In this document: positions 3,940 to 28,946 of the stretch, in pieces
Numbering within the stretch: the first letter of the stretch is position 1
Layout of the letters: the number at the start of each line of letters is the position of its first letter
Notes under the pieces: generated by a model
Seen by the model: only the letters and a program-made list of their open reading frames with translations
What the model was told of the DNA's origin: nothing
Database searches by the model: none
Origin: an uncultured virus (IMG/VR IMGVR_UViG_3300043469_000509)
Lineage: Duplodnaviria; Heunggongvirae; Uroviricota; Caudoviricetes; Crassvirales
Length of the DNA: 37,267 bases
Direction: 5' to 3' (one strand)
Virus record (IMG/VR): IMGVR_UViG_3300043469_000509
Translations under genes and position numbers: made by a program

Positions 3940-4812
3940 TTAATTATGACAAAAGCAGAAATACTTAAAACACACAAGATGACCGAGAAGGAGTTCTACG
4001 AGAAGTTTCCTACTCAAGAAGCATATAATCAATTTCAAATGGGAGGTTCTTTATCTCCTAAACAAAAGTTTCAAGATGGAGGTTTAACACCTCTTGTAGC
4101 TACATATCCTACACCAAACTTACCAGCAACAGGAACAAATATACCTACCGCTGCTGCAGCTCCTGCTGCTGCTCCAGGAAGTGGATTTAAACTTTCTAAT
4201 CTGTCTGGACTTGGCGGAGGTCAACAAGCTCCTAAACAAACAGGAGAAGACCCTAATGCCCCTACTCAGAAAAATATAGGTAAAACTATAGGCGCTGTTG
4301 GAGGCGCTGCTATTGGCTCACTTATTCCAGGAGCAGGTACTATGATAGGGGGAGTTGTAGGAGGTGCTATTGGTGGGGCTATAGATAAGAAAACTTATGA
4401 AAATAAAATGGAAGATTATAATGCTGTTAAATCTAGCCAACAAAATGCAATGACTTCTAACATAGCTGGTAACTTTAATCCTAGCGCACAAGGTAAGCAG
4501 TTTAAGATGGGTGGTAATTTTACAGAATATCACGGTAATACACATGAGAATGGTGGTATACCTATTGGACAATCAGAAGTAGAAGGAGGAGAAACTAATC
4601 ATAATGGTTATATATTTAGTGATACACTTAAATTAGGTAAAAAAACATTTGCAGATATGAGTAAGAAAATTAATAATAAGTATTCTAGAAGACCAGATGA
4701 TAAGATATCTATGGAGTCTAAAGAAAGAGAATTAGGTAATCTTATGAAAGTACAAGAAAGTACTGGATTAACTAATAACTCAAGAGGTATGTTTCAATTT
4801 GGAGGAAGTTGG
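964..4812 (+). repeat. Dispersed peptide repeat [F/Y/K]-x-x-G-G(-W-L-D) in the first two cargo proteins
   Basis: FRKGGWLDGL (964), KKFGGSIDGL (~1393), AKNGGWLDGL (~2122), FDMGGTID (2164), KQNGGWLENL (~3904), FQMGG (4033), FQDGG (4069), FKMGG (4501), FQFGG (4792). Confidence 0.75.
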
Positions 4813-5754
4813 ATGAAAAATATTAATAAGTTAACTAATCAAGCTAATAATCCACCTAACTATACACGTAGTAATTATGCTCCTACCGCAATAACTGAAT
4901 CTCCTACAGGATTTTATACTACTGAAGATAGAGATTCTAATAAAGAAGCTTATGGTAATATATACAATGCACTAATAGAAAGCCCTATTGACAAACCAGT
5001 TATTGAAAAAGCTATTGAAGATGAGAGATCTAGAGTAGGTTTACAAACTACATCTCCTACATTATCTAAATCTTCTGTACCACCAACACCTTCTACTATA
5101 ACAGATACTAATAAACCATTGCAAACAAATGTTAATCCATTAGGCTACCTAGCTAGTCTTGTTGGACCAGCTTATACTATTGCTCAAGGATTAAAAGGTC
5201 CTGATCCAGTAAACTTTGATAGAATGACTAGTAAGTATCAATATGCTGATCCTAGAGGAGCTATGGCTGCTGCTAATAAAGGATTGACATCTGCTTACAA
5301 CTCAACTAAAAATGCTGTTAGAAATACAACTAGTAGTGCCGGTGATCTTCTTGCAAATATGACAAATTTATCTAGCAAAGAAGGTATGGATAGAGCTGCT
5401 ACTATGGCTGGTATTAAAAGTCAATATGATATAGCTAATACACAAGGTTTAAATCAAACTAACTTAACTAAAGATCAGTATAATGCTCAAATTCAAATGA
5501 GAGAATCTGTAGCTAGACAAGAAGAACAAGATGCAGCTAAAAATGCTATTAGTCAAGGGTTAAATAACTTCGGGCAAAATACTCTAGGATATGGTCAAGA
5601 TGTAGCTATGAATAGAACACAAAACACAATGCTACCACTACTTGCAGATGGTTATGAGTACGTTATGGATGATGCTGGTAAGGTAAGTACTAGAAGAAAA
5701 ATAAGCAATACTAATAAAGGAAATCAGATTACAGAAGTTCCTGTATACGGATAA
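3946..5754 (+). CDS. Virion cargo/ejection protein with glycine-zipper segment and G-x-x-HE-x-GG...EVEGGE domain
   Basis: 602 aa. Gly-zipper IGAVGGAAIGSLIPGAGTMIGGVVGGAIGGAI (~4288-4383), GNTHENGGIPIGQSEVEGGE motif, four F-x-x-GG motifs and a Q/N/A-rich helical C-terminus. Lies upstream of the virion RNAP cluster. Confidence 0.6.
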   Translation: MTKAEILKTHKMTEKEFYEKFPTQEAYNQFQMGGSLSPKQKFQDGGLTPLVATYPTPNLPATGTNIPTAAAAPAAAPGSGFKLSNLSGLGGGQQAPKQTGEDPNAPTQKNIGKTIGAVGGAAIGSLIPGAGTMIGGVVGGAIGGAIDKKTYENKMEDYNAVKSSQQNAMTSNIAGNFNPSAQGKQFKMGGNFTEYHGNTHENGGIPIGQSEVEGGETNHNGYIFSDTLKLGKKTFADMSKKINNKYSRRPDDKISMESKERELGNLMKVQESTGLTNNSRGMFQFGGSWMKNINKLTNQANNPPNYTRSNYAPTAITESPTGFYTTEDRDSNKEAYGNIYNALIESPIDKPVIEKAIEDERSRVGLQTTSPTLSKSSVPPTPSTITDTNKPLQTNVNPLGYLASLVGPAYTIAQGLKGPDPVNFDRMTSKYQYADPRGAMAAANKGLTSAYNSTKNAVRNTTSSAGDLLANMTNLSSKEGMDRAATMAGIKSQYDIANTQGLNQTNLTKDQYNAQIQMRESVARQEEQDAAKNAISQGLNNFGQNTLGYGQDVAMNRTQNTMLPLLADGYEYVMDDAGKVSTRRKISNTNKGNQITEVPVYG

Positions 5755-5782: not shown

Positions 5783-7651
5783 ATGAGATTTTTTAAACCA
5801 AGTGCTACAGAGTATCAATCCCAGTTTTCTCCTTTAAACCTAGATTTTATGCAAAAGAATCTAGCTCAAAAGGAAGCTAATGATGTAGTAGCTGAAGACT
5901 TATTAGATAAGACAAGCCAGCTCCAAGTTGAAGGTGGTATGGTAAGTGATCCTAATGAAGTTAAAAAATATAATGATTGGATACAAACTAATACTGCTAA
6001 CATTAGAGAGAAATTTGCAGCTGGAGATATGGATGCTAAAGAAGCTTCTAGAAATTTAGCTAAAATTGTTCAAATTTATAATACTAATGAAGATATTAAG
6101 TTTTTTAATACTGATCAAAAATTAAGCGCTTTAACTAGGCAAAGAATAGCAGAAGGTAAGGCTAATAATGCTATAAGTAGTAATATAAGTTATCTAAATG
6201 GAAACTTACAAACTGAAGCTATATCTTCTAAATCTGGTTTAGATGCTTTAGCTAGAGCTCATAACTTAACTAATCCTTCTAGTATGTATGATAAAGAGAA
6301 TTACTTAGAGCAATTTAGGGATATGAAAGCTAGGGTATCTAGTACTTCTTTTGCTGGTAATCCGAGTTTAGATTTTTCTACTGGAGTACCTTTAATAATG
6401 AATACTGATGGTAAAACTGTAAACTCTCAATTAACTAGAGAAATGGTTAGAGAAATAGCAGCACAAATGGCCCCTCAAGAAATTAATAATGCAGCTACTC
6501 CATGGGTTCAGTATAATCAAAATAAGTATAAAGGTAATTATAACGAAGCTAATTTTGTAGATGATTTTGAAAATGCTTTTACTGGATATGTAGATACATA
6601 TACTTCTGATGTAAATAAACATTTTTCACAAGTAAGCGGTAGCGGTAGTGAAAAAACTACAACACCTCCACCACCACCAAGATCTGTAGCTGCAGCTGGG
6701 TCTACTCAAGATTATGGGGTAAATCTTGTAGATATGATGGATAGTAAGGGTATTGATGTTTTAAATAATTTTATATTTGACTATAACAAAACTTTTGATT
6801 TTACTAAAATAGATGTTAAAGGGACTCCTGAAAATGATTATTTTACTAAAAAACAACCTAGTTCAATGGACGCGCCGTTTTCTTCAGACTCACCTTTAGC
6901 TAGTGCTTATCAACCAGTAGATATAACAGATCCGCAGTTTAAAAAGTTATTTACAAACTTTGTAACTAACAGTACTAAATGGAAACATAATTTAGCTGGA
7001 GTAAATGGTGAATTTGAAATACCTCAAGGAACATTATTACCTATGTATGGAGATTTTGCTAGAAATATGGTTGAGTTTAAAAAAGACGTTATTAAAACTG
7101 GAAATACAGCAACACCAATAACTAGTGATACTAATCCTCAAATATGGTCTGATTATGTAGGAGTAGATAAAGGAGCTGCTACTGTTGGTAATGTAATTAC
7201 ACAAGCTATAAATAATGGAGCTGCTATTTACAGCCAAAAAGATAATAGAATATTAACCCCAGAAGAAACTACAGCTTTGTATGACGAGCAATCAAAAACA
7301 CCGCTTAGCGGTATTCAAGAATACAGTCCTGAAAATGTTTTATCTTTTATGACTGGCGATGATAATTTTACAGGGGGTATTGGATTTGCTACTAGTAAGG
7401 GTAAATATGTAGTTAATAAAGTAACTGCAACTGATACTGAAGCAATGATAAACAGATTATATAAAAATGGTAAGTTAAATACTAATCAGTGGTTAGATTT
7501 AGGGTATGGTGGAGCTAAATATAAAATAGATAAAGATAATAAAGTATATTTAAAATCTCAAAATAATAAAGTTTTGGAATACCCTAGAGTTGCTGAAATG
7601 CTTCAAAATATATATAATACTAAAGTAGAAGTTAAATCTGGAAAAAAGTAG
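5783..7651 (+). CDS. Putative virion cargo protein (622 aa); N-terminal part of a predicted -1 frameshift fusion with the amidase
   Basis: Long ORF in the cargo cluster. Ends ...GGA AAA AAG TAG at a slippery heptamer. Confidence 0.65.
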   Translation: MRFFKPSATEYQSQFSPLNLDFMQKNLAQKEANDVVAEDLLDKTSQLQVEGGMVSDPNEVKKYNDWIQTNTANIREKFAAGDMDAKEASRNLAKIVQIYNTNEDIKFFNTDQKLSALTRQRIAEGKANNAISSNISYLNGNLQTEAISSKSGLDALARAHNLTNPSSMYDKENYLEQFRDMKARVSSTSFAGNPSLDFSTGVPLIMNTDGKTVNSQLTREMVREIAAQMAPQEINNAATPWVQYNQNKYKGNYNEANFVDDFENAFTGYVDTYTSDVNKHFSQVSGSGSEKTTTPPPPPRSVAAAGSTQDYGVNLVDMMDSKGIDVLNNFIFDYNKTFDFTKIDVKGTPENDYFTKKQPSSMDAPFSSDSPLASAYQPVDITDPQFKKLFTNFVTNSTKWKHNLAGVNGEFEIPQGTLLPMYGDFARNMVEFKKDVIKTGNTATPITSDTNPQIWSDYVGVDKGAATVGNVITQAINNGAAIYSQKDNRILTPEETTALYDEQSKTPLSGIQEYSPENVLSFMTGDDNFTGGIGFATSKGKYVVNKVTATDTEAMINRLYKNGKLNTNQWLDLGYGGAKYKIDKDNKVYLKSQNNKVLEYPRVAEMLQNIYNTKVEVKSGKK

Positions 7652-7697
7652 AAACTCCAGTAGAAACTGGGGCTCACCCTACTGGAGTTACGAGAGC
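7642..7697 (+). promoter_or_regulatory. Programmed -1 ribosomal frameshift signal (A_AAA_AAG plus downstream stem-loop, possible pseudoknot)
   Basis: A AAA AAG at 7642-7648 is in the correct phase immediately before the TAG. Perfect 11-bp inverted repeat AACTCCAGTAG (7653-7663) / CTACTGGAGTT (7679-7689). Loop GCTC (7672-7675) could pair with GAGC (7694-7697). The -1 frame is open 7636-8508. Confidence 0.8.
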
Positions 7698-8508
7698 GGA
7701 ATTAAATAATAATTCTAATGTCCCAAAAACTGAAACAAAATCTACTAAAGAAGAAATCTTTAAATCTATTAAACCTAAAACTTCTTCTTCATTAGTTAAG
7801 CCTTTAAAAGTAGTTGAAAAACCTAAAGTAAATGTAACGCCTAAACCTAATTCTAAACCTATACAAGGGGATACATCATTAATACATAATGAAAAAGGAT
7901 ATAGTGTTCAATATGATCCTACTACAGGAGGGCCTTTAGAAACTCCTAAGAAAGGAATTATGCTACATCAAACAGGTGGAAATGCTAAGTCAGCATTACA
8001 ATCAGCTAAAGGTAAAACAGGATTTCATACTCTTATTGATAAAAATGGTAACATTACAGAGTTAGCAAATTCTAAACAAGTAACTTATCATGCAGGTGCA
8101 AGCCATTTCGGCTCAGAAAAATCTTCAAATGCTTCATTATTTGGAATAGAATTTGAAGGTGTTCAAGTAGATAAAATGGGTAGATATGAAGAGTTAACTA
8201 AAGCTCAAATAACTAACGGGGCTAAATATGTAGCAGCAAAAATAAAAGAATTTGGAATTACTATAGAAGATGTAATAGGGCATCATGAAGCTACTGTTTA
8301 TAAAAATTCTGCAAGTAGAAAAAAAGGAAGTGATTCTCTTACAAATGAGGATTTCTTAGACGCTAAAGAAATTGCAAGTAATAGACATTCTCATGGAGAG
8401 TTTGCAGGATTAGCTAGAAAATCTGATATGTCAGTTAAAGTGATGAGTCAAATTATAACAGAAGTTAAAAAAATACTTAATGGACAAAACTATACAACCA
8501 GAAAATAA
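7648..8508 (+). CDS. N-acetylmuramoyl-L-alanine amidase (Amidase_2-like) with P/K/T-rich N-terminal linker; probably expressed by -1 frameshift from the upstream ORF (ORF track start 7960)
   Basis: GIMLHQT, FHTLIDKNGNI, YHAG, GIEFEG and VIGHHE motifs typical of Zn-dependent type-2 amidases. The frame is stop-free from 7636 with no ATG until 7960, which falls inside the first catalytic strand. Confidence 0.8.
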   Translation, partial: VETPVETGAHPTGVTRAELNNNSNVPKTETKSTKEEIFKSIKPKTSSSLVKPLKVVEKPKVNVTPKPNSKPIQGDTSLIHNEKGYSVQYDPTTGGPLETPKKGIMLHQTGGNAKSALQSAKGKTGFHTLIDKNGNITELANSKQVTYHAGASHFGSEKSSNASLFGIEFEGVQVDKMGRYEELTKAQITNGAKYVAAKIKEFGITIEDVIGHHEATVYKNSASRKKGSDSLTNEDFLDAKEIASNRHSHGEFAGLARKSDMSVKVMSQIITEVKKILNGQNYTTRK

Positions 8509-11500
8509 TGATACTTTAGATTTATCTAAAATAGATCCTAAACAATTAGATTACATATTAGCAGTACCTAATAGAAATCTAACATTATATAACATTGATA
8601 AATCTCAATATGATAGGGAGTTTATTATCCCTCAATCAGGCGATCCTTATGAGGCTTTAGGAGAATTTAGAGCTAATAACCAATCAGCTATTGACCAGCT
8701 AACTAATAGCGCATTAAAAGGAACTTTAATGGCGGGTACTACATTTGCAGATACTTTTGCAGGTAGTGCAGCAGGATTAGTTAATGTATTAGGTAAAAGT
8801 ATAGAATTAGCTACTGATGGAGTAGATACTGATAATGGTGATAATGCTAAACAAATATTTAATGCTTTTATTAATAACCCTGTTTCTATAGGTTTAAATG
8901 ATTTAAACGAAATAGTTAATAGCGATTACTTAGTTAATTATAGAACTAAGCAAGAAATGGATAACGAGTGGTATGAAAATTTAGGTACTGCTAATTTCTG
9001 GGGAGAGAGTATTTTAAAGAATGCTGGATTTATGGTAGGAGGCGCTGGAGCTAGTAAATTAATTGGTAGTGGATTATCTCGTATGGCTAGAATAGAACAA
9101 GCTAGACAAGAATACAAAACTATTCAAGATGCTACTAAAGCTGTTTTATCAGGTATAGATGTAGACCCTTCAGATGTAAAACTATTAATGTCTACAGTAA
9201 AAAACAATCCTGGTATATATGGACTAGAAGCTGAAAAGGTTATAAAAAATTTAGCTGAGGCTGCTAAGACTGTTAGAGTTAGAACAGTTGGTGTACAAGC
9301 TGCTACTGCTACCCTAGGATCTTTTGGTGAGGCTAGAGTAGAGGCTTTAGGTAATGGAAATCAATTTAAAACTGATTTAACTACTAAACTAGATATGGAA
9401 TTTAAAAATCCAGATGGTAGTTTTAAGTTAGGTAAGGATGAAGAACAATATGAACAAGCTTTAGATAAGATAGATAATGAAGTTATGTCTTATCAGAATA
9501 TATCATTTTTAGGAAATGCTTTAGCACTATCTGCAAGTAACTACGCTGGTTGGAGAGAAACTTATTTAAAGTCTTATGACTTTAATAAAAAGAATATGAT
9601 AGGTAGTTCAATGGGAAATGTTGCAGGAGGTTATAAATATACTTCTCCAACAGCATTTAAAGCTACTCTACAAAAGAGAGGTTTAGACATGTTAAGAGAA
9701 TCTCAAGAAGAGCAAATTCAATTTGTTATTGATAAGGGAACAGCTGAATATGTTAACTCTCTTTATAACGGAGGAGATGTTGCTGGTAGTTTATTGAAAG
9801 GTTTAAGTAAGGGATTTAGCGAAGCATATGGATCAGCTGAAGGTTGGGAAAATGCTTTTGCTGGAGGTTTATTTGGCTTTATGGGTGTACCTGGAATGAA
9901 CTCTATTTTTAGTGAGTACAAAGAAACTGGAGCTAGAATTAAAGAAGAGTCTAGTTTAGTAGATAAGTTAAATGCTGCTATTAAAGATGGTGGGTTAGAT
10001 AACTCTAAAGAAAATATTTTAACTAGAGCTTATGCTAGAGATTTAGGGCTAACTATTGATCAAACTGAATCTTTAAAAAATGAAGATAGAAAGTTATATG
10101 AAGATTTAAAGGATAAGAAGTTTTTTAATGTTGCTAATGCTTTTATTGAAGCTGGTAAATATGAAGACTTTATAGATTTAATAGAATCTGAATCAGATTT
10201 AGATATTTCTGAACTTAAAAAAAAGTATAGTATTCTTACTAAACCAGGAGATGAAAACTCAAGAACATCTTTATTTGAAAATTGGGAAGAAGCTGAAATT
10301 AGAGGTTACATAGCTAAACAGGCTGGTAAGGCTAAAACTGAGGTTAAAAAACTTAGGGAGTTAAAAGATAATTTAGATACACTATATCAAAATCAATCTG
10401 TAACTATAAGAAATAAAGAGGGTGAAGAAGTATCTTACATGCTAAAAAATATGCTTACTGAGTCTTTCTACATGGCTGAAAGAAGAGATAAGAGAATACA
10501 AGATGTAAGACAAGAGCTAACAAAAACTATGACAAGCTCTGATTTACCTTTAACTAAAGAAGCATTTGATTTATCTATGATAGATAATCTATATAATGCT
10601 TTGTCTGGTAATTTACTAGTTGTTAATCCTACACCTAGTGATATCTTAGAAGGTAAGATGGATTTAGATAAAGTAATTACTTCTTTAAATGATTACGTAA
10701 AAAGATTTAAAGCATCTACAAATGATTCTAAAGTTATAGGATTGATGCAAGATTATATTGATTTACTTAGTGAGAGGGCTATGAGTAATTTAACTTTAGC
10801 TCAAGTAAGTAAGAATGATTTTTCTGATTTAATAGCTTCTATTAAAAAACATAAAGCTAAGGCAGAAAAGTCTGTTGTTGAAAAACAAAAAGAAGAAGTT
10901 AATAAAGAACTTTCAGATACTGAAAAATTAAATATAGTTAAAGAGAGAGGTAAGGCTGCTGGCTATTCAAATGTAGATGGTGAAGGTAGACCTGGAAATT
11001 TCTTTACATTAAAAGATGCTGCTGGTAACATAAGAAGATATGAGATTGAGCCTTTAAATGTAGGAAAAGAAAAGAAGAAACTTCAAGATGAGAAAGAAGC
11101 TAAGTTAGCTGAGCTTAATGAAAATGATGAAGAGTTAATAAAACAAATTGAAGAAGAATATGAAGCTAAAGAATTAGAATTATTAACTTCTTCAAAGCAA
11201 GAGGCCGCTATTAAAGACTTTGAAACTGGTGAATATTTAAGAGATAAAAAAGGTAAATTAATAAAATTTGATAATGCTTTTGCAATACAAAATTTTGATA
11301 AGCTAGACTTTATTTCTAGAGAGCAGGGATTAAATATTAAACGTACAAGAATAGCTCAATTAGCTAACAGAAGAAAACTTGATGCTATTAGAGAATTAAC
11401 ATTAGAATTAAATTCTAAAATAGAAGAAGAGATTTCTAAACTTGAATCTTTAATAGCTGATAAAAAGAAGACTAGAAAAGAGATTGCAGAGTATAAAGAA

Positions 11501-14470
11501 TTAAAAGAATTATTACCCTCTATAAAAGATAAGGGTGAAGCTAATAAAATAATTAAGAAATTAGAACAGCAGCTAGGAGAACTAGAAGAAGGTATAGATA
11601 CAATAAATCTTTTAATAGACCAACTAGAAGCTCACAAACAAGATTTACTAGATTTAGCAGAAGAGATTAAAACATCTTTTGAAGAGGGTACAAATTTATC
11701 TTTTGAAAAATATATAAATAATTTAGATAATTTACAACTTTCAGCTCTTGAAAAAATATGGGCTAGAAATTTATCTAGGGATTTAGAAGAACTTTTAAAT
11801 GATAATGAAATACAATCTTCTTTAAATAGCTTACAACAACTTAAAAATAATACTTTAAATGAGATACAAGCTACTCAAGAAATTATAAATAATTTAAAAG
11901 AGTTAGTAGATAAATCTAATACTTTTAAAGAATGGATTTTATCTAGTAAGATAAAAGGATTACCTTCTTGGTTTGTAACTAAGTGGAGTGTAGGTAAAAA
12001 GACAGACCCTTTTCAGTTTAGTTCTAAAGTAGGAGATTTACAAGATATAAAAAGATTATACCAGTTTCAAAACGTAATGAATAAGTACGCTGAAAAATAT
12101 GGCTTATCTTCTAAAGAAACTTATAATGAATTTTTAAATGATTTAAAAAATTTAAAAGATGCTGAAAATATACGAAATGAAGATTTAAATAGGACTTATG
12201 ATGAGATTAGAAATCTAGAAAATGAGATACTTGTTAATAGTAGAGATTTAGAAAATTTAAAAAATAGGTTAGAAGATATTATTGAGTTAAAAGGATTTCT
12301 ACAGAATGAGTTAAAACTTAAAAACTTAAAAGATTCTATTAACCAATTAAAAATTAAGTATACTAATATTATTAATAGAGACAGTAAATACAATACTGTT
12401 GAACCTAATCAGGTAGCTTTTGAAGATGGGCAACCTAGTGAAGTTTATAATGAAGGTGATTACAAAGCTTTAAGCTTACCTTCTAGTGCTATGAGTTTAA
12501 CTCCTTTTTATACTACTAATAAAACTGTGGAACAAAATCCAGATGGTAGTACAAAATATAAAGATAATGGATTTCCTGAACTTAATCAGAATGAAGATGC
12601 TATTAGATGGAATAGATTTTTAGAAAGGACTTCTAATTTAGGAGCTAAAGATAGTAATTATAGACTACAAGCTTTTGTAAGAAATTTATTACCTGCAACT
12701 TCTAAATTAAGAATAGACGCTGAAAAAAGAATTTTAGAAGGTGGTGGAGTTTTATCTGATGATGATATAATTACTGCTGTTGTAAATTTATCTGGAGAAA
12801 TTATGACTGCTGATAAAGATGGTCTATTATCTAGAGAAGGTGGTTATATATACACTTTCTTACCATTAACTCATCACTTACTAGGAGTTAATAGTAAGGT
12901 TGCTGATAAGGGCTTATGGATGTACTGGAAAAAGTATGCTGGTGTAAAAATGCAGCACACTCTTACTTTAACTAAGATAGAACAAGATTCTACACATGAT
13001 GATGATTTAGTGGAATTTGGTAAAGGTAATCAAATAAAATTAAGTGTTGCTAAAAGAGAGATAAGAGAATTTGCAGCTAGACAACATGCTAAATTTATAA
13101 CTAATATTAAAGGAGCTATAGCAGAAGGTAAAAAAGTAATCTTACCTGTACAATCAGTTAGTAATGGTATTCTATTAAAAAGGAAAGCTGTTGAAGGAGA
13201 GCTTACTATGGACTCAGTAAGTAATGTATTACTTAACATGAGGGATTTAAATACTAATTCTGCAGAAGGGTTAAATAATGTAGAAGTACATGTTGTAGTA
13301 AAAACTGGAGATAATTATAGCATACCTAGAACATCTATAGTTATCCCTAATGCTAAAAAGGGAGCTGTTGTTGTTTATAATAAAGTTACTAAAGAATATT
13401 TTTACGCTAATCAAAGAAACATAAATGATACAGAAGTTGATTTAGTTTTACATTTATTAGAATTAGTAGCTAATAATCCAGAAAAAAACTTAAACTTAAA
13501 TTTAAATATAGGTAATAATAAAACTAATTTTTATAAAGATGGTAGTTTAACAAGACAAGAAGTTCCTATTTTTCAAAAATTTGGAGGGTTATCTATAATG
13601 AATAACTTAATTTTTTGGGGTAGTCCTAATAAAGGAACCCATAATAAACATACAATTTTTGTAGATAAGGGTAAAATTCATTACCCTAATCCTAATAATA
13701 ATTTTACTATGGAGTCTATACCTTTAACAAAGGTAAGAGATGTTAAAGTAAATGCTAATTTACAAGCTTACTTAAAAACTAAACGTCATAATGTAAACCA
13801 TAAAATGTTTGAAACTCAAGCTTGGTATATGCACCCTGTAATTAAGAATGGTAAGCTTGAGTGGGAAATGGTTGAAGGTGGTTATAAAGCATTCTTATTA
13901 AATGGGTCTAAGTCAATTAGCCCTGTGTTAATTAGTAATGCTGTTAATTCTAATACTAAAAATAATAACTTAAAATTGCTTTTTGCTTCTAAAAACGTTA
14001 TATTAGATATCAATCCTGAAACTGGTGTTCCTAAAATTGAAAATCAAATAAATAAAGAAGCTCCTAAACCAGATCCTACAGCAGCAGCAGCACAACAACA
14101 ACCTGCACCTGCAGCTCCTGCAGCAGCTGCTCAAGAAACGTCTCCAGCAACTATTGTACCTATGAGTGCAGAAGCTGCTTTAATAGAAGCCTCTTTAAGT
14201 AATGAGGATTTTTATGCAAGTTTAGCAGCAGAAGGACATGGTCAAGTAACTGATTTAGCTACTTCTTTATCAATTTTAAATCAAACTGGTAATACATCAA
14301 ATGATTTAGGAGAAACTCCTTTTGTAGAAGATTCAAATCTAGCTAGGGTAACGCCAGATAATGTAGTAGATGAAAACCAAAAAACTTGTAATACAGGAGG
14401 TAGTACACCTCCAAATACAGGAGGGATTAAAAAAAACCAAGATATACCTAAAAATAACAGCGAAGACTAA
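8480..14470 (+). CDS. Giant virion cargo/ejection protein with long coiled coil (gene upstream of the virion RNAP)
   Basis: 1996 aa. Gly/Ala-rich hydrophobic N-terminal segments, ESQEEQIQ motif, extended E/K/L heptad region and PAAP linker near the C-terminus. TAATG stop/start coupling to the RNAP gene. Confidence 0.65.
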   Translation: MDKTIQPENNDTLDLSKIDPKQLDYILAVPNRNLTLYNIDKSQYDREFIIPQSGDPYEALGEFRANNQSAIDQLTNSALKGTLMAGTTFADTFAGSAAGLVNVLGKSIELATDGVDTDNGDNAKQIFNAFINNPVSIGLNDLNEIVNSDYLVNYRTKQEMDNEWYENLGTANFWGESILKNAGFMVGGAGASKLIGSGLSRMARIEQARQEYKTIQDATKAVLSGIDVDPSDVKLLMSTVKNNPGIYGLEAEKVIKNLAEAAKTVRVRTVGVQAATATLGSFGEARVEALGNGNQFKTDLTTKLDMEFKNPDGSFKLGKDEEQYEQALDKIDNEVMSYQNISFLGNALALSASNYAGWRETYLKSYDFNKKNMIGSSMGNVAGGYKYTSPTAFKATLQKRGLDMLRESQEEQIQFVIDKGTAEYVNSLYNGGDVAGSLLKGLSKGFSEAYGSAEGWENAFAGGLFGFMGVPGMNSIFSEYKETGARIKEESSLVDKLNAAIKDGGLDNSKENILTRAYARDLGLTIDQTESLKNEDRKLYEDLKDKKFFNVANAFIEAGKYEDFIDLIESESDLDISELKKKYSILTKPGDENSRTSLFENWEEAEIRGYIAKQAGKAKTEVKKLRELKDNLDTLYQNQSVTIRNKEGEEVSYMLKNMLTESFYMAERRDKRIQDVRQELTKTMTSSDLPLTKEAFDLSMIDNLYNALSGNLLVVNPTPSDILEGKMDLDKVITSLNDYVKRFKASTNDSKVIGLMQDYIDLLSERAMSNLTLAQVSKNDFSDLIASIKKHKAKAEKSVVEKQKEEVNKELSDTEKLNIVKERGKAAGYSNVDGEGRPGNFFTLKDAAGNIRRYEIEPLNVGKEKKKLQDEKEAKLAELNENDEELIKQIEEEYEAKELELLTSSKQEAAIKDFETGEYLRDKKGKLIKFDNAFAIQNFDKLDFISREQGLNIKRTRIAQLANRRKLDAIRELTLELNSKIEEEISKLESLIADKKKTRKEIAEYKELKELLPSIKDKGEANKIIKKLEQQLGELEEGIDTINLLIDQLEAHKQDLLDLAEEIKTSFEEGTNLSFEKYINNLDNLQLSALEKIWARNLSRDLEELLNDNEIQSSLNSLQQLKNNTLNEIQATQEIINNLKELVDKSNTFKEWILSSKIKGLPSWFVTKWSVGKKTDPFQFSSKVGDLQDIKRLYQFQNVMNKYAEKYGLSSKETYNEFLNDLKNLKDAENIRNEDLNRTYDEIRNLENEILVNSRDLENLKNRLEDIIELKGFLQNELKLKNLKDSINQLKIKYTNIINRDSKYNTVEPNQVAFEDGQPSEVYNEGDYKALSLPSSAMSLTPFYTTNKTVEQNPDGSTKYKDNGFPELNQNEDAIRWNRFLERTSNLGAKDSNYRLQAFVRNLLPATSKLRIDAEKRILEGGGVLSDDDIITAVVNLSGEIMTADKDGLLSREGGYIYTFLPLTHHLLGVNSKVADKGLWMYWKKYAGVKMQHTLTLTKIEQDSTHDDDLVEFGKGNQIKLSVAKREIREFAARQHAKFITNIKGAIAEGKKVILPVQSVSNGILLKRKAVEGELTMDSVSNVLLNMRDLNTNSAEGLNNVEVHVVVKTGDNYSIPRTSIVIPNAKKGAVVVYNKVTKEYFYANQRNINDTEVDLVLHLLELVANNPEKNLNLNLNIGNNKTNFYKDGSLTRQEVPIFQKFGGLSIMNNLIFWGSPNKGTHNKHTIFVDKGKIHYPNPNNNFTMESIPLTKVRDVKVNANLQAYLKTKRHNVNHKMFETQAWYMHPVIKNGKLEWEMVEGGYKAFLLNGSKSISPVLISNAVNSNTKNNNLKLLFASKNVILDINPETGVPKIENQINKEAPKPDPTAAAAQQQPAPAAPAAAAQETSPATIVPMSAEAALIEASLSNEDFYASLAAEGHGQVTDLATSLSILNQTGNTSNDLGETPFVEDSNLARVTPDNVVDENQKTCNTGGSTPPNTGGIKKNQDIPKNNSED

Positions 14471-17400
14471 TGAGTGTAATATGTCCTAGAGTAAATACTT
14501 CTGAATGGAAGTCCTTAGAAAGAAAGTATGGTTATGACTATGCTTGGAAACTATATATGTATAACAATAGTAATATACCTTCTTTAGAAGAGGCTAAATT
14601 ATTAAAAGTTAAACATGAAAAAGTATTGTCCAAATTTATATTTGAAGGGGTTGAATTAACATCTTTAGAAAAAACTGATTTCCTAAATTCTTTAAAATAT
14701 TTCTTTGTAAAAAACTTAATAAATAACTTTGATACTATTCAAGATATTGAAAATATTTTAGAAGACATTTTAGATAGTAAGTCTATTATGAATGTCTATG
14801 ATAAGGCTCTTGAAAATATCATTGATGCTTATTCTGAAAAGGCTGATCCAAGATTAACAAATATTTTAATGGCTGTTATTAAAGATCATCCTACTAATTT
14901 TTTAAGAGAGGCTTATCAAATTGCAGAGGAAGATTCTTATAAAGCTGGTTTAATTTACAACCAGTTTAAAAAAGAGTTATCTAATATTGTTAAATTTGTT
15001 AAATCTAACGATGAGGACCCTGATACTAAGAAAACAGAAGCTGTTACTGAAACTACTAAAGATAGTTATGGTAAGGAATCTATAGAGCAAAATAGAAAAG
15101 ATACTTTCTCAAGAGGTATTAAGATACTATTATCAGGAGTTCCTGAATATGCTAAAGATGGAAGTTACGCAAGAAATAGTTTAGGCATGCTTCAACCTGT
15201 TAATGCTAATAAAGTTAATAATGAGTTACTAAATTTATTTGCTAATACTCCAGCTACAGCTCAAGATTTTTTAGAAAAACTTTATTCTGAGGCTGATACT
15301 AACCCTACAATTAATTGGGTGTATGAAAAAGTATTTAGTAGTTTAAGTACTAATCCTAAAACTGGTGAATTAGAATTAACTAATTCTAATATTTCTGAGT
15401 TACCTAGGTTTAATATGATAATTAAATTTATCCAGTCTTTTGCTAATCATAAATATAAATTAGATGCTGCTATTGTTAGTAAAACTAAAGAGGGTACTTC
15501 TATTAAGATACAAGATGCTGATACTAATAAGTTAACTAATAGAATATTAAAAGAGTGGAAAACTAATATTGAGAAAGCTTTAGATAGTGGTGTTGTAGTA
15601 GGATCACGTAAGATTATCTTTAACAATGATGTTAATGCTTTTGTAAATTTTCTAAATGCTCAAGATGAATCTTTAGAGGACAAGCTAGCTGTATTAGGAT
15701 TACCTCAAGTTAATGAAAAGCTAATAGATGAATATAGTGCTAGTAATACTTTAAATATACTAAGCAATAATTTAAGTTTTATACAAACATTTTTTGATTT
15801 AACAGGATTAATAAAAGAGTCTGTTAAAACAATTCCTGGTAATAAAGGATTACTAGAGATGTTTGAACCTCTTAGTAAGAACACTAAGCTGCATGCTTAT
15901 ACTGTAGGGCTACTTGAATTTACACTACCTTTTAGAAAGGACTATGATAATCAACAGTTTAATACTGATGGTAATTTAATGAGTACTATTAACTTAAATA
16001 GTTTTCAAACATTACTTTTAAATAGATTAAATAATGCTGTAGATAAAGCTAGACAAAAGTTTCCTAATGATAGTGTTTATAATAATTTTGAAAATATTTA
16101 CGAAGAGCTAAACAAAGAAGTTCCTGAAGCATTAAATCAATGGTCTTCAGATTCTAAATTTATGCAAAGAGTCTTATCAGGAGAGAAGTTAGAAATTAAA
16201 CTTCTTGATGGTATGGTTGCAAAAGGAGGAGATGGTAAAAGTACTTCAGCTTTAGTACAAACTGATTTATGGGGTATGTTTATTAATAGCTCATTAAATA
16301 ATGTATTTCCTGCTATTAAACACGGTGATAGAAGTATGTTCTATGGCTACAAGTTTGGGTTTGGAGGTTCTGATATATTAAGTACTGCTGGATATATGCC
16401 AGATAGTAATTGGAAGAATAGATTTACAGATATACTTTTTGATTACTTAGATACTGAAATACAACGCATTAAAATTTTTAGAAGCGGGGCTACTGAAACT
16501 GCTGATATACAAAACATTAATAAGTTAGGTAAAGAGTTTATTTTGTTTTCTGAGATATTGGATACATTTAATTCTAATAAATTACATAGAAATAAAATAG
16601 ATTCTTTAATTACTAATTATACTAATATCCAAGATTTAAAAGAAGATAAATTTATAGCTAGTCTTATTAATAAATGGGCTGGTAATTACTTTAATGAAAG
16701 TATAGCACAAGCTAAGAATTCAGGTATAGGAGAGCTAGGTAATGGTATTGATGTTAATATATCAAATAAACTTTATAATGCGTTAGAGTACTCACAAAGA
16801 GGCTTAAAAAAAGATCAAGCTTTCTATGATGAAGTTATTAGTTTAGCTGCTGCTAAATTTTTTATAGGAGCTGTAGAACAAACTAAACTATTTACAGGCG
16901 ACCCAGCTCTTTACCAAATTAAAGGGTTTGAAAAAAACTTAGAAGCTTTAGAAAGTAAATCTAAAGAAAGTATATTAATATATGATTTTATAAAAAGAAT
17001 TACTATGCAATCATCTACTAAGATGGTTGCTGTTGTAGATACTGTAACTAATAACTTTTTAAATAATCTAGCTGCTGAAGAAGATTTTAAATTTTCTATA
17101 AATGGAGGCCCTAAACAAAGTTATAATAAAAACTTTGATGGTACTATTAGAGAGCTAGTTATTAATGACCCTAAAACAGTTAGTAAGTTAAAAGAAGAGT
17201 TGGCTTTAATTTTTAAAGACAATCCTGAAGCATTAGCAGCTTATACTGAGAATGGGTTTGATGAAACAGATGGCTTTAGTATAGGTAATATATTCTTTGC
17301 ATTAGAAGGTATATTTAGAACAGAAGGAATTCACTCTGCTAGATTAGAAACTGTTAAAAGGGAATTAAAGTTTTTATCTGGTACTCAAGAAGAACTAGAT

Positions 17401-20400
17401 ACTCTTTATACTGTCCCTAAAGGAGAAAACCCTGAGAAATATTTTAGCCAAACAGTGAGACCATTTACTCAACAAAAGTTTCAATATGTTGGCCCTAACT
17501 ATATGAAGGATAGAAACTCTTATATAGAAGATGGTAAAAAAGGTAATTGGAGAAACAGAGTAGGTATTACAGCAGGTAGAAAAACATCTTATGGATACTT
17601 AATGCCAAGTGTTGTTAAAGGCACTGTCCTAGAGCAATTAAATAACTTTATGTTAGAAAATGCTGTAGATGTTATGCACTTTGGTTCTGCTGCTAAATTT
17701 GGTTCTGGTAAGACTAGGGATTTTTATAAAGTTAGAGAAGAAAATGGAGTTAAAATTACTGAAGGATTTAATGATTCTCCAATATTAAGCAATGAGTTAG
17801 GATTTTTAGATTTTAGGTATATGGGTAAACAGCAAGAAATTGCTTATGAAACTAAAAATAAAGTTAGTGATAGTACCCAAGCTAGGAAGATTAATCTTAG
17901 TGGTATAATGGAAGATGGTGTACCTATTGATTATGCTGGTACAAATGAAGAGTGGGATAAATTATCTGAACAAGAAAAGCTATCTAACTCAGAATTATTT
18001 AGATTCATTACTAGATATGATCAAATTTATAATGAGCTAATTCAAGAATTTATCTCAGAGCTACAAGCTGGTTATGAGTTATCTAATACTTTTAATATTA
18101 CTAACCCATTAAAGTTTGTTAATTTAATTAGAAAACAAGCTGAAGATAGAGTATCTCCTGATAATATAATAGAAGCTATTATTGATTGGGCTAAAGATGA
18201 TTCTAATTTAAAGTATATAGAAAGTTTAGCTAACTACCAAAAGATACAATATGTATTAACTAGTATAATAACTAATAATCTTTTAATATTAAAAAGACCT
18301 GGAACAATGTTTCCTCAATCTCCAAGTACTGGATATGAGTCTACAGATTCTTTTAGAACTTTTAGTGGTGAAAATTTAGAAAGTAATGACGCTTTAAAAT
18401 TCTATACTTTTGACAAAGATGAAGATGGAAATATAATTAAAGTTAATCCAGCTGAAATAATGATACCCTTACCTCTAGATAAGGTTGAGGGATTATTTAA
18501 TTACTACGATGGTAAATCTATATTAATAAATGGAGAGGTTTATAAAAAACCTAATGCTGAAAGAAACATTAATAAGTTATTAGATATTATAAATAATCAA
18601 ATAGCTGAAGGTAATTTACAACACCAATATCTAATTAAAGGATTACGTATTCCTAATCAACAGCTTAGTTCTAATGATGTATTTAAAGTTAAAAAATTCT
18701 TAAACCCTATTTATAACCAGACTATTATAGTACCTAATGAGATACTAGTTAAAAATGGTTCGGATTTTGACATTGATAAGGAAAGTTTATACTTCCCTAT
18801 TTTAGATGATGAGATGAAAGCTAAAGACTCTGATAAAATGTCATCTGTAGAAAAACTACATAGTGAATTATTAGATTTAGAAATTAAACTTTTATTACAC
18901 CCTAAAAGAGTTAGTAGATTACTTATGCCTGTAACTGAAGGCTATTTAAAAACTATTGCTAAAAAAGCTCAAATAGCAAATATAAAAAATGTAAATAAAC
19001 AACCTACACATTTATTTGCTTTAGGAAGTTTAGTAGAAGGTACTTTAGATTATGTAGGTGGTAAGCAAGGTGTAGGGGTTGTAGCTACTTGGATTACTTT
19101 TCAAAAACTAGCTGAAAGATATAATATAGTTTTAAAAACTTCACGTACTAATAGTAAGGGGGATTATATACCTGTAACTTTAGACAATAGGTATTTAGAT
19201 GGTAAAGATGTTATTGTTAATGATAACTTTATTAGTTTTGGTAAAACTGTTAATCGTAATATTATTAATGAGAAACAAGATAGCGGTCAATCTAGAGAAA
19301 TCTTATTAGAAGAACAAATAGAAGATGTTTTATCTAATCTTATTACAAGTCAAGTAGATATTGTTAAAGATAAGTGGGCTTCAGAAATTAATATTAGATT
19401 AAATACTTTAAATTTAGTATGCTATCTTGTAATGAGAGGCTGTTCTACTAAAAGTATTGTAGACTTTATTAATAATCCAGCAATAAAACAATTTAATGAG
19501 ATTAAGGAGATTAACAAAGCTATGTCTATTGATTCTCCTTACCCTAAAGATAATAAAGGTATAATTCAATTTATAGCTGGTAAACAACCTAATTATATAA
19601 GTAGTATATTAGAAGAATATATTAAAGTAACTGATGAAGCTGGGCAAGTAAAAAACTTAAAAGATTTTTTATCTGCTGATACAAAGTATTTAAAAAGTCC
19701 TGAAGAAGTTTGGGAAGTTGATAACACTCTTTGGAGAATGTTAAATAGTTCTGAAAGTATATTTGATTCTAACCAATTAAATGAGCTTAGATATAATACA
19801 TTATTATCTAGTTTTATACAATCTAGAAGTTTAATTAATACTATATTTGACCCTTTATACTTAACTAGAAATAGTTTAAATAAAGATTTAATTGAAAAGC
19901 AATCTATATTAACTAATAAAGGCTTTGATCATATACATAAAGATACTACTAAGAAAGCTGCTATAAAAATTTATAATGAGCATTTTATTAACTTCCTATT
20001 ACAAAACCAATTAAAAAGTGTAATTGAGTCTAAGTATGAGAATTTAATGAAAGGTCCGAATAGTATGGCTAGAAGAATATCTAGAGCTAAAGATAACCCT
20101 AGGTTTGCTAATAACTATTTAATACAAAACTTAATATCTATTATAGATAATAAATTAGGTAATAGTACAGAGCAAGTTATAGATAATGTTAAACTATTCT
20201 TAACTAAAACTACTACTACTGAAACTAATAACTTATCTAATAACTTTGAAGAGATTGAGAGTATAGATAAAGCGTTATATGAAGACTTAATTTACTTTAA
20301 TTTATTTCAAGCTGGTATAAGTAATAGTCCTTATCAATTAAGTAAAATACTTTCTCATAAGGGTCAGAAATTAGTTTTAGATGCTTTAAATAATGAAGGT

Positions 20401-21480
20401 GTACAAAACTTAATTAATGATAATAACTTAGCTATTTTTTATGAGAAGTTCTTTCTAAATAATGGTAAGTATAATGAACTAGATAAAAATTGGAGTAAGT
20501 ATAGAGATGAAAATTCTTTTTATTCTGAGCCTGATTTTGCAGATGCTTATGAAGACTATGAAGACTACGAAGACCCTTTTGATTATCCTAGTAGTGAGTT
20601 TAGTCCTAAAGAAGATAGATATAAGCATAAATTATTTAAAAAAGGTTATGACTCACAAGGGTTATTAAAGTTATCAACTAAGGAAGGTAATATTATAACC
20701 CCTGCTGGTGGAGTTAATGGTATTAATTACATTGTAACTAAATATGACACTCCTAATGAAGATATATTAGAGTTAATACAAAGTTATGAAATTGTTAATT
20801 TAGAGCCTACTCAATCTGTTACTAGTGAATCTACTACTCAACGTAAAACATATTCTGGTAAAGTAACAAGTTTGCAATCTAATCAAATATTTGTATTTGG
20901 TTCTAATGAAGGGAATTCTAAGGGGGCTAAACCCACACATGGTGCAGGTAGTGCAAAGATTGCTAGAGAAAAATTTGGCGCAATACAAGGTCAAAGTAGA
21001 GGTCTGCAAGGGCAATCTTATGGCATTGTTACTAAGAAGTTTTACGATGTAGAAAAATCAAGTACTCCAGAAGAAATTACAAAAGAGATTCAAAGTTTAT
21101 ATGAGTATGCTAAACAAAATCCAACTAAAGAATTTTTAGTATCTGATTATTCTGAAAGCAATCTTAATGGTTATACTGGACAACAAATGGCAGATATGTT
21201 TAATGCTGCTGGATCTATACCATCTAATATAGTATTTAATGAGAATTTTGATAAGTTAATACCTGCTCAATCACAAGCTACTACATCTACTGAAGATGAA
21301 AAAGCTGATATTTTTTATAACCTTGAAGAGTTCACAATTGAGCAAAAAGTTGTTATATTAGATAAGATGTTAGCTAAAGGTGATGCCCTATCTGAAGAAG
21401 ATGCTTTAGATCAATTAAACCAAATGTTAGCAACTGATAAAGAGTTTGCTACTGAATATATAAAATCTTGTTTATCTTAA
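14470..21480 (+). CDS. Virion-packaged two-barrel DNA-dependent RNA polymerase (crAss-like, phi14:2 gp66 type)
   Basis: 2336 aa. LRIPNQ (18643-18660) followed by GSDFDIDK with catalytic DxDxD at 18763-18777. ETDG motif. Size and context match crAss-like virion RNAPs. Confidence 0.9.
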   Translation: MSVICPRVNTSEWKSLERKYGYDYAWKLYMYNNSNIPSLEEAKLLKVKHEKVLSKFIFEGVELTSLEKTDFLNSLKYFFVKNLINNFDTIQDIENILEDILDSKSIMNVYDKALENIIDAYSEKADPRLTNILMAVIKDHPTNFLREAYQIAEEDSYKAGLIYNQFKKELSNIVKFVKSNDEDPDTKKTEAVTETTKDSYGKESIEQNRKDTFSRGIKILLSGVPEYAKDGSYARNSLGMLQPVNANKVNNELLNLFANTPATAQDFLEKLYSEADTNPTINWVYEKVFSSLSTNPKTGELELTNSNISELPRFNMIIKFIQSFANHKYKLDAAIVSKTKEGTSIKIQDADTNKLTNRILKEWKTNIEKALDSGVVVGSRKIIFNNDVNAFVNFLNAQDESLEDKLAVLGLPQVNEKLIDEYSASNTLNILSNNLSFIQTFFDLTGLIKESVKTIPGNKGLLEMFEPLSKNTKLHAYTVGLLEFTLPFRKDYDNQQFNTDGNLMSTINLNSFQTLLLNRLNNAVDKARQKFPNDSVYNNFENIYEELNKEVPEALNQWSSDSKFMQRVLSGEKLEIKLLDGMVAKGGDGKSTSALVQTDLWGMFINSSLNNVFPAIKHGDRSMFYGYKFGFGGSDILSTAGYMPDSNWKNRFTDILFDYLDTEIQRIKIFRSGATETADIQNINKLGKEFILFSEILDTFNSNKLHRNKIDSLITNYTNIQDLKEDKFIASLINKWAGNYFNESIAQAKNSGIGELGNGIDVNISNKLYNALEYSQRGLKKDQAFYDEVISLAAAKFFIGAVEQTKLFTGDPALYQIKGFEKNLEALESKSKESILIYDFIKRITMQSSTKMVAVVDTVTNNFLNNLAAEEDFKFSINGGPKQSYNKNFDGTIRELVINDPKTVSKLKEELALIFKDNPEALAAYTENGFDETDGFSIGNIFFALEGIFRTEGIHSARLETVKRELKFLSGTQEELDTLYTVPKGENPEKYFSQTVRPFTQQKFQYVGPNYMKDRNSYIEDGKKGNWRNRVGITAGRKTSYGYLMPSVVKGTVLEQLNNFMLENAVDVMHFGSAAKFGSGKTRDFYKVREENGVKITEGFNDSPILSNELGFLDFRYMGKQQEIAYETKNKVSDSTQARKINLSGIMEDGVPIDYAGTNEEWDKLSEQEKLSNSELFRFITRYDQIYNELIQEFISELQAGYELSNTFNITNPLKFVNLIRKQAEDRVSPDNIIEAIIDWAKDDSNLKYIESLANYQKIQYVLTSIITNNLLILKRPGTMFPQSPSTGYESTDSFRTFSGENLESNDALKFYTFDKDEDGNIIKVNPAEIMIPLPLDKVEGLFNYYDGKSILINGEVYKKPNAERNINKLLDIINNQIAEGNLQHQYLIKGLRIPNQQLSSNDVFKVKKFLNPIYNQTIIVPNEILVKNGSDFDIDKESLYFPILDDEMKAKDSDKMSSVEKLHSELLDLEIKLLLHPKRVSRLLMPVTEGYLKTIAKKAQIANIKNVNKQPTHLFALGSLVEGTLDYVGGKQGVGVVATWITFQKLAERYNIVLKTSRTNSKGDYIPVTLDNRYLDGKDVIVNDNFISFGKTVNRNIINEKQDSGQSREILLEEQIEDVLSNLITSQVDIVKDKWASEINIRLNTLNLVCYLVMRGCSTKSIVDFINNPAIKQFNEIKEINKAMSIDSPYPKDNKGIIQFIAGKQPNYISSILEEYIKVTDEAGQVKNLKDFLSADTKYLKSPEEVWEVDNTLWRMLNSSESIFDSNQLNELRYNTLLSSFIQSRSLINTIFDPLYLTRNSLNKDLIEKQSILTNKGFDHIHKDTTKKAAIKIYNEHFINFLLQNQLKSVIESKYENLMKGPNSMARRISRAKDNPRFANNYLIQNLISIIDNKLGNSTEQVIDNVKLFLTKTTTTETNNLSNNFEEIESIDKALYEDLIYFNLFQAGISNSPYQLSKILSHKGQKLVLDALNNEGVQNLINDNNLAIFYEKFFLNNGKYNELDKNWSKYRDENSFYSEPDFADAYEDYEDYEDPFDYPSSEFSPKEDRYKHKLFKKGYDSQGLLKLSTKEGNIITPAGGVNGINYIVTKYDTPNEDILELIQSYEIVNLEPTQSVTSESTTQRKTYSGKVTSLQSNQIFVFGSNEGNSKGAKPTHGAGSAKIAREKFGAIQGQSRGLQGQSYGIVTKKFYDVEKSSTPEEITKEIQSLYEYAKQNPTKEFLVSDYSESNLNGYTGQQMADMFNAAGSIPSNIVFNENFDKLIPAQSQATTSTEDEKADIFYNLEEFTIEQKVVILDKMLAKGDALSEEDALDQLNQMLATDKEFATEYIKSCLS

Positions 21481-28913: not shown

Positions 28914-28946
28914 AAAAAGGAGAGGCTGTTAGACCTCTCCTTTTTT
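28914..28946. terminator. Bidirectional intrinsic terminator between convergent gene blocks
   Basis: AAAAA-GGAGAGG-ctgttaga-CCTCTCC-TTTTTT, giving U-tracts on both strands. Lies between the stop at 28905 (+) and the stop at 28949 (-). Confidence 0.9.

Follow-up and report, generated by a model that had tools for sequence, protein, structure and literature searches.

A probable programmed −1 ribosomal frameshift that would join an amidase domain to a cargo-type protein of an uncultured crassvirus

The window analysed here, a stretch of 37,267 nucleotides (nt) of DNA from an uncultured crAss-like phage (IMG/VR record IMGVR_UViG_3300043469_000509), contains a gene for a protein of 622 amino acids (aa) that is followed, in the −1 frame, by an amidase-encoding sequence with which it very probably communicates by ribosomal frameshifting. 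The open reading frame (ORF) of the 622-aa protein ends with TCT GGA AAA AAG TAG, which places the slippery heptamer A_AAA_AAG in the X_XXY_YYZ phase of the 0 frame and directly in front of the stop codon. Upstream, the −1 frame is closed by a TAA codon located 6 nt before the heptamer, and a shift is therefore confined to 7636–7651, a 16-nt overlap of the two frames with the heptamer inside it. Downstream, the −1 frame stays open to the stop codon at 8506–8508, that is, for 291 codons counted from 7636 or 288 counted from the heptamer, and the predicted fusion would be 908 aa long (622 + 286). All of these elements had been pointed out in a first-pass annotation of the stretch, and the in-phase heptamer at the end of the ORF, the extent of the −1 frame and the approximate length of the fusion can all be read directly from the sequence. 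The heptamer occurs in phase three times in the 12,100 codons of the window, and where it does so elsewhere, at 10219 and 31602, the −1 frames are only 3 and 5 codons long, compared to 288 at the site in question.

The beginning of the −1 frame has no apparent site for translation initiation. There are no ATG, GTG or TTG codons in the 108 codons of 7636–7959, the first of them being codon 107 counted from the heptamer, yet 7642–7959 is coding in the −1 frame. The codon-usage score, trained on the window's own ORFs, is +0.757 per codon for the −1 frame of this segment versus −0.86 and −1.20 for the other two frames, and for 7714–7959 alone it is +0.777 versus −0.74 and −1.35; the 622-aa gene and the amidase part score +0.688 and +0.597, respectively. 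Across 7636–8508, the other two frames contain 26 and 46 stop codons. The −1 translation (P0001) matches the Pfam family PF01510 Amidase_2 with an E-value of 2.5e-16 and 60.6 bits (cut-off 26) over residues 105–218, which correspond to profile positions 5–121 of 131, and nine amidase or endolysin families of PHROG match it from residues 80–108 onward. Residues that are presumably the zinc and catalytic ligands align with those of 9hna and AmpDh2, namely the first-strand histidine, the motifs HAG and GIE, and the histidine of GH; the alignments do not extend to the third ligand. Met109, which is encoded by the first canonical start codon, falls within the first strand and stands two residues ahead of the first conserved histidine. 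The strand already starts upstream of Met109 when the protein is aligned to 9hna and AmpDh2, in whose chains 23–42 residues precede the strand, therefore a product initiated at this position would lack a part of the fold. The first-pass annotation had dismissed this ATG as a start codon, and the interrupted strand agrees with that judgement; independent initiation elsewhere within 7636–7960 is likewise unlikely, as the segment has no canonical start codon yet a full −1 coding signal.

Four nucleotides after the heptamer, the transcript can form a stem of 11 base pairs (bp) with arms that are 100% complementary and a loop of 15 nt. The predicted fold of the RNA at 7640–7720 has an energy of −21.2 kcal/mol, compared to −11.85 ± 2.74 kcal/mol for shuffled sequences (z = −3.41), and none of the 200 shuffles fold as well. 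Perfect hairpins with separate arms of at least 11 nt account for two of the 18 inverted pairs listed for the window, one being this stem and the other located at 28914–28945. The same heptamer, stop codon and stem occur in three related contigs described below, and across the resulting four cassettes eight of the 11 stem pairs are invariant, two change on one side only (C-G to U-G and U-A to U-G), and one, the second A-U pair, is lost in two sequences, which leaves a core of 9 bp separated from the heptamer by 6 nt. The free synonymous third positions are also unevenly distributed, as none of the eight in the stem arms vary, compared to five of the nine elsewhere in the 24 codons of the cassette (Fisher p = 0.029); the two third positions in the pseudoknot do not vary either, and adding them to the arms gives p = 0.011. 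Such apparently frozen sites come from a small sample of related sequences and can be regarded as supportive only. Both the perfect stem and the complementarity between GCUC in its loop and GAGC downstream, noted in the first-pass annotation, are exact; the candidate pseudoknot is neither supported nor refuted by the comparison, as all four of its pairs are invariant in the four sequences. A search of 7500–7850 against Rfam gave only two chance-level matches with E-values of 4.5–4.6, far under the gathering scores.

Table 1 Features at and around the putative frameshift site (positions in the window).
Feature	Position	Strand	Basis
Upstream neighbour, 602 aa, CARG1 domain and glycine zipper	3946..5754	+	Pfam PF25725, PF13488
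0-frame gene, 622 aa, cargo-protein-2-like by position and fold likeness	5783..7651	+	ORF, family, model, gene order
TAA closing the −1 frame upstream	7633..7635	+	sequence
Slippery heptamer A_AAA_AAG in 0-frame X_XXY_YYZ phase	7642..7648	+	sequence; identical in L003, L008, L031
Putative recoding cassette, 24 −1-frame codons common with the relatives' module	7642..7713	+	four-way alignment
0-frame stop TAG, directly 3′ of the heptamer	7649..7651	+	sequence; invariant in 4/4 cassettes
Stem-loop, arms 7653–7663 / 7679–7689, loop 7664–7678	7653..7689	+	inverted-repeat list, RNA fold
Candidate pseudoknot pairing, loop GCUC 7672–7675 with GAGC 7694–7697	7672..7697	+	complementarity read from sequence
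P/K/T-rich linker without ATG/GTG/TTG	7714..7947	+	ORF list, codon score
Amidase_2 domain, −1 frame	7948..8289	+	PF01510, PHROG
First canonical start of the −1 frame, ATG	7960..7962	+	inside first beta-strand
C-terminal tail of the amidase ORF and stop 8506–8508, overlapping the start of the 1996-aa ORF (8480)	8290..8508	+	ORF list
1996-aa ORF, giant neighbour 3′ of the amidase frame	start 8480	+	ORF list

The three contigs that keep the heptamer, the TAG and the stem are L003 (96,997 nt; the same contig as L004, L007 and L028), L008 (97,846 nt) and L031 (52,449 nt). In a four-way alignment with the window, the sequences upstream of the heptamer are not alignable, and near-identity starts sharply at CTGGAAAAAAGTAGAA and lasts for approximately 70 nt. 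The 0-frame proteins of the cassette contigs are only 29–30% identical, and the 30% identity between those of L003 and L008 extends over 291 residues only. The cassette is absent from the homologues in L001/L002, L005 and L006, two of which are from marine TARA samples, and there the next giant ORF follows directly; since homologues without it exist, the extension appears to be an accessory feature of a part of the family. The L031 contig was found in a 16-mer pattern scan with at least 117 stretches, and among the other matches listed none has two long frames, the next best, L085, having frames of 132 and 152 codons. The scan also matched unrelated phage contigs (L014, L026 and L115, with the match at 2003 or 303, and the L022 group). 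In one such set GGAAAAAAGTAG ends a 61-codon ORF and is followed by a −1 frame of 82 codons and by a strong hairpin (−16 kcal/mol), while the frames in a second recurrent set are 33 and 30 codons long; such matches could represent further frameshift sites, for instance of the kind known from tail chaperones.

In the relatives, the −1 frame that follows the heptamer is longer than in the window, with 545 codons in L003, 516 in L008 and 519 in L031, and encodes a module composed of a conserved N-terminal domain of approximately 150 aa, a P/K/T-rich linker and a variable C-terminal domain. At least three unrelated C-terminal domains are found behind the one N-terminal domain (P0048, P0049 and P0050), an observation of domain shuffling inside the frameshift extension that can be followed in L003 at 7025–8659 and in L008 at 8055–9602. 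Gene callers start all three of these proteins at an internal methionine, cutting the conserved domain. The first canonical start codon in the −1 ORF is codon 161 in L003, 33 in L008 and 220 in L031, and in L003 and L031, two of the three, the whole conserved domain precedes the first start. The ratio of nonsynonymous to synonymous divergence (dN/dS) for module codons 25–155 is nonetheless only 0.17–0.33 in the three pairs, which indicates that the start-less stretch is translated, and ribosomes would reach it only by a shift in the upstream gene.

The extension in the window agrees with this module over precisely its first 24 residues, the similarity stopping after the NNN codons, and continues with a linker and amidase of its own; the 24-codon cassette is retained in the window though the domain that contained those codons is lost. 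Amidase_2 is absent from the relatives G001 and G002, both 100% complete, and from the partial G003, thus the amidase would be a lineage-specific replacement at the place of the module. The function of the module itself is hinted at by PHROG matches that begin at residues 4–6, namely phrog_873, labelled 'endolysin' (E 2.2e-13), phrog_2276, labelled tape measure, and phrog_7694. Pfam searches with the module gave nothing significant and PDB sequence searches gave no matches; its AlphaFold model, with a predicted local distance difference test (pLDDT) score of 40, is too poor for use, and a wide structural search with it gave only Z ≤5. An Atlas search returned unnamed clusters only, with a lysozyme family at 0.76 as the nearest named one, a weak lead.

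The first-pass annotation had suggested looking in homologous genes for a conserved slippery site and stem at the 3′ end and for exchanged muralytic domains in the −1 frame. The former are present in L003, L008 and L031, and the C-terminal GKK that the site encodes recurs in 10 of the 44 listed family proteins. As for the latter, a module of 516–545 aa is indeed exchanged, but its muralytic nature did not find support beyond the 'endolysin' label of the PHROG match.

The family of the 622-aa protein comprises 16 relatives in a large protein collection and 35 representatives in a profile search, and nearly all of the full-length members are 586–691 aa long. The N-terminal approximately 300 residues are conserved among them and the C-terminal halves are not. 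Three long representatives (802, 877 and 915 aa) are matched over their first 130–331 residues only, and there are no in-frame fusions among the 35 representatives. The GKK C-terminus is found in P0002, P0012, P0014, P0017, P0022, P0034, P0035, P0040, P0042 and P0044, which span very different E-value ranges, and the single RKK end (P0013, one of 44) could still encode the heptamer; the 44 listed ends include fragments without a true C-terminus, none of which were dropped. Separately, the distant members P0046 and P0047 (877 and 915 aa) end with GK and P0028 (627 aa) with QKK, and these may use other slippery sites or none. No relatives were found in a bacterial and archaeal genome collection by protein patterns or by the cassette pattern, and scans of viral contigs with P0001, P0044 and P0040 gave no matches.

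No match to the 622-aa protein exists among GenBank phages by blastn or by tblastn at an E-value of 1e-5, in Pfam or among PDB sequences, and its identity can be approached through structure and gene order. The AlphaFold model, built with 32 family sequences, has a mean pLDDT of 74.6, and the last eight residues are disordered. The model has no match in the PDB at an E-value of 0.001 or better; in BFVD there are ten matches at E ≤0.001, all with low template modelling (TM) scores of 0.13–0.28. The best of these is a 'Structural protein' of Cellulophaga phage phi14:2 (E 8.3e-12), presumably a crAss-like phage, and the others are uncharacterised proteins of crAss-like phages with lengths of approximately 400–1100 aa, several of them near 600. 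The order of the genes in the window is 1312, 602 (with a CARG1 domain), 622, 1996 and 2336 aa. In phage crAss001 the order is gp44 (muzzle), gp45 (cargo 1), gp46 (cargo 2, 60.2 kDa) and the RNA polymerase (RNAP)-associated giant proteins gp47, gp49 and gp50, and gp45 and gp46 are expected to form a trans-envelope channel (PMC10172136). The 622-aa gene thus occupies the position of gp46 between the CARG1-domain gene and the giant ORFs, and resembles it also in size and in the muzzle-sized ORF further upstream, whereas no sequence similarity between the two was detected by the tblastn search of GenBank phages at 1e-5 or in Pfam. That the 622-aa product is a virion cargo protein is a well-supported inference from synteny and likeness of the fold, and it is on these two grounds that it may also be called a putative ejection protein.

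The most probable explanation of the arrangement is a programmed −1 ribosomal frameshift that yields both the 622-aa product and the 908-aa cargo-linker-amidase fusion. Most ribosomes would read GGA AAA AAG and stop at the TAG, producing the 622-aa protein. When two Lys-tRNAs are on AAA AAG, the ribosome would face the 11-bp hairpin at its mRNA entrance, with the stop codon about to come into the A site, and a fraction of the ribosomes would slip one base back, the Lys-tRNAs re-pairing on AAA AAA, and would proceed with GUA at 7648. Translation in the −1 frame would then continue through the 24-codon cassette, the linker of approximately 80 residues and the Amidase_2 domain. The fusion could be packaged by means of its cargo part and ejected at infection, when a few copies of the amidase would cut the peptidoglycan locally; this fate is suggested by the analogy with the T7 and P22 ejection proteins, which has been drawn for crAss001 as well (PMC10172136). 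The slip, its rate, the incorporation into virions and the role in wall penetration are what we infer from this combination of features.

Several observations weigh against such a frameshift. None of the 15 stem and pseudoknot pairs change on both sides, so covariation is absent among the four DNA instances, in which the stem is mostly invariant, and the invariance itself could be partly due to the conserved peptide. The spacer of 4 nt is short, and no AGGAGG-like run that might act as a Shine-Dalgarno (SD)-like stimulator is present in the sequence upstream of 7642. An SD-like element is optional in signals of this kind, and Bacteroidetes hosts make little use of SD pairing. It is Bacteroidetes that crAss-like phages infect (PMC7886860). 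There are no tRNA genes in the window. No RNA runs are listed among the sequencing runs that carry the window DNA, and, finally, some relatives may start the amidase independently, as is suggested by P0018, a 201-aa protein from a 3-kb contig with a 92% identical amidase, for which the start was called where the window has ATA at 7879–7881.

The same fusion would also result from transcriptional slippage, if the RNA polymerase stuttered on the A6 run so that some of the mRNAs carried A7. The crAss-like phages have unusual RNA polymerases, and the giant RNAP-type ORFs at 8480–21480 would be counterparts of gp47, gp49 and gp50. A run of six adenines is, however, shorter than those known for efficient transcriptional slippage, and such a mechanism would leave unexplained the conserved hairpin at the ribosome entrance, the frozen synonymous sites in its arms, and the invariant final G of the heptamer and TAG, which makes it an improbable source of the product. 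Still less probable is that the amidase is a separate gene, for instance an endolysin, that starts at ATG 7960 or a non-canonical codon within 7636–7959 and is only incidentally preceded by the signal. Gene callers do start a 182-aa relative, P0019, at the ATG equivalent to 7960, P0018 is called from the ATA site, and the families matched in PHROG are those of endolysins and amidases. Against this, the 108 codons without ATG, GTG or TTG still score as coding, the ATG cuts the first strand of the fold, and the first 24 codons have their homologues at the beginning of the frameshift module of the relatives; in L003 and L031 the conserved domain of that module precedes any start; the amidase is also not a fixed lysis gene of the group, since the two complete relatives are without it.

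The remaining alternative, a single 908-aa ORF that was split either by an indel introduced during assembly or by the recent loss of one nucleotide from an A7 run, has to be considered as homopolymers are the usual place for errors and A7 would fuse the frames exactly. The first-pass annotation had named A7 as the finding that would undo its proposal, and the length of the run was compared in Logan contigs from four sequencing runs belonging to four other samples and studies, with the likely source run left out. The run is spanned with zero gaps in all four, namely in record 5 (7574–7724), record 13 (7525–7964), record 18 (7583–7733) and record 27 (7430–7675), although, as a point that also weighs against the frameshift, the spanning sequences are contigs of depth 2–6 and not raw reads. 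No indels are listed within 7000–8600 in the contigs of the four runs; one run has the substitution A7676G in the loop of the hairpin, where it introduces the same base as in the relatives. The A6 run is thus not an assembly error. The same out-of-frame layout is moreover found in three diverged phages, the GKK end recurs across the family in the absence of any in-frame fusion among its representatives, and the start-less modules are under purifying selection, so that an artefact or decay of the gene is largely refuted and the least credible of the explanations.

The signal itself is of a known type, as the first-pass annotation had maintained for A_AAA_AAG with a 3′ structure. The −1 signal of IS911, a member of the IS3 family, consists of the same type of heptamer and a hairpin. 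In E. coli dnaX the identical A AAA AAG is decoded by two Lys-tRNAs with a hairpin a few nucleotides downstream, and shifting in vitro amounts to 84%, falling to 50% when the SD sequence is removed, to 20% when the hairpin is removed and to 2% when the slippery sequence is removed (PMC5389563). Unlike dnaX, the site described here has no visible upstream SD-like stimulator and a 0-frame stop codon directly after the heptamer, and while the −1 product of dnaX is the shorter one, here it would be longer and gain an enzyme. A further comparison is offered by the tail-assembly chaperone genes G/GT of phage lambda, which are likewise expressed through a frameshift. In the T7 group, a frameshift occurs in gene 10 of K1F (PMC13370021). 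Similarly to G/GT and 10A/10B, the shift here would take place near the 3′ end of a late gene, and a fixed minor share of the product would carry a C-terminal extension; in contrast to both, the gene is of the cargo or ejection type and not a chaperone or capsid gene, and the extension is a putative catalytic wall-hydrolase domain on a long flexible linker that appears to be exchangeable between phages.

In retroviral Gag-Pol, a −1 shift at the end of a structural gene appends enzymes, a small fixed share of which is packaged. The logic of packaging an enzyme by way of a structural part would be the same here, whereas the host, the details of the signal, the proteins and the activity are unrelated, and there is no sign of proteolytic release at this locus. 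A lytic transglycosylase domain is likewise present on an ejected internal protein of T7, gp16, and similarly the fusion would carry a muralytic domain on a head-packed protein ejected before the DNA; unlike in gp16, the enzyme would be found only on the frameshifted minority and is an Amidase_2 and not a transglycosylase. The T7 ejection proteins are mentioned in the crAss001 virion paper, the main text of which does not contain the words peptidoglycan, hydrolase or murein, and in its accessible text no frameshift extension is reported for gp46 (PMC10172136). In the accessible text of Yutin et al., unexplained frameshifts are noted only in the RNAP genes of the Zeta group (PMC7886860), and the literature searched did not yield any account of a frameshift of this kind in crAss-like phages or Crassvirales. 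The signal, being of the dnaX/IS3 type, is accordingly not new; what is new is that the gene encodes a cargo-type protein of a crassvirus, that its payload is an Amidase_2 carried on a long linker, and that the module is exchangeable.

The −1 module is also considerably less diverged than the gene it is attached to. Between L003 and L008, the synonymous and nonsynonymous divergences of the module are dS 0.40 and dN 0.11, whereas the 290 residues over which the 0-frame gene is best conserved have dS 0.95 and dN 0.69, and the cassette and module therefore look younger than the host genes or exchanged between them. More tentatively, the heptamer, TAG, hairpin and 24 codons might together constitute a portable recoding adaptor that moves with exchangeable 'warhead' modules between crAss-like phages and docks onto cargo genes with unrelated 3′ ends, the phage of the window having kept the adaptor and swapped in an amidase; this is a real possibility that stops somewhat short of being probable. 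Such a model would imply that crassviruses tune both the choice of the wall-attacking or other enzyme that is injected and its low dose, via recombination at one fixed recoding joint.

Crassviruses are among the most abundant phages known, and their cargo proteins and DNA have to cross the cell wall; an amidase attached by frameshifting, if real, would supply the missing wall-opening activity. It would have been overlooked because gene callers either omit the extension or place its start codon within the domain, and ejected enzymes would join chaperones and capsid proteins among the phage products made by programmed frameshifting. The observations suggest a rule for re-annotating crAss-like genomes, in which a cargo gene ending with GKK and a stop codon is followed by a start-less −1 ORF, and the site offers a natural and compact putative recoding cassette suited to reporter assays.

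The window is AT-rich, with a G+C content of approximately 30%, and the sequencing runs that carry its DNA are lake-water metagenomes. The plus strand contains a block of very large ORFs of at least 1312 and then 602, 622, 1996, 2336, 136, 939 and 1388 aa. The 602-aa ORF matches the Pfam family PF25725 crAss_CARG1 (E 4.9e-09, 36.8 bits, cut-off 27) as well as PF13488 Gly-zipper. Of the stop codons in 21 ORFs counted, 19 are TAA and two are TAG, one of the latter being that of the cassette, which in the −1 frame is read as part of GUA GAA. Reassignment of TAG to glutamine, as found in some crAss-like phages, was considered and rejected for this site, as the amidase is in another frame; readthrough of the TAG would add only approximately 20 codons, and the long ORFs are intact under code 11.

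Other than a match of the 2336-aa ORF (14470–21480) to phrog_2072, a family of unknown function, which covers 143 positions at the C-terminal residues 2127–2267 only (E 2.1e-25), the giant ORFs of 1996 and 2336 aa have no Pfam or PHROG matches. The 136-aa ORF at 21492–21902, an odd small gene in the block of giant ORFs 3′ of the cargo genes, matches DUF5856 (PF19174, E 2.4e-11) and phrog_858, the label of which is 'starvation-inducible transcriptional regulator'. The inverted repeat at 28914–28945 consists of a perfect stem of 12 bp and an 8-nt loop with a T-run at its end; it occupies precisely the gap between the plus-strand late block, which ends at 28905, and the minus-strand block (28949), and is probably a two-way terminator.

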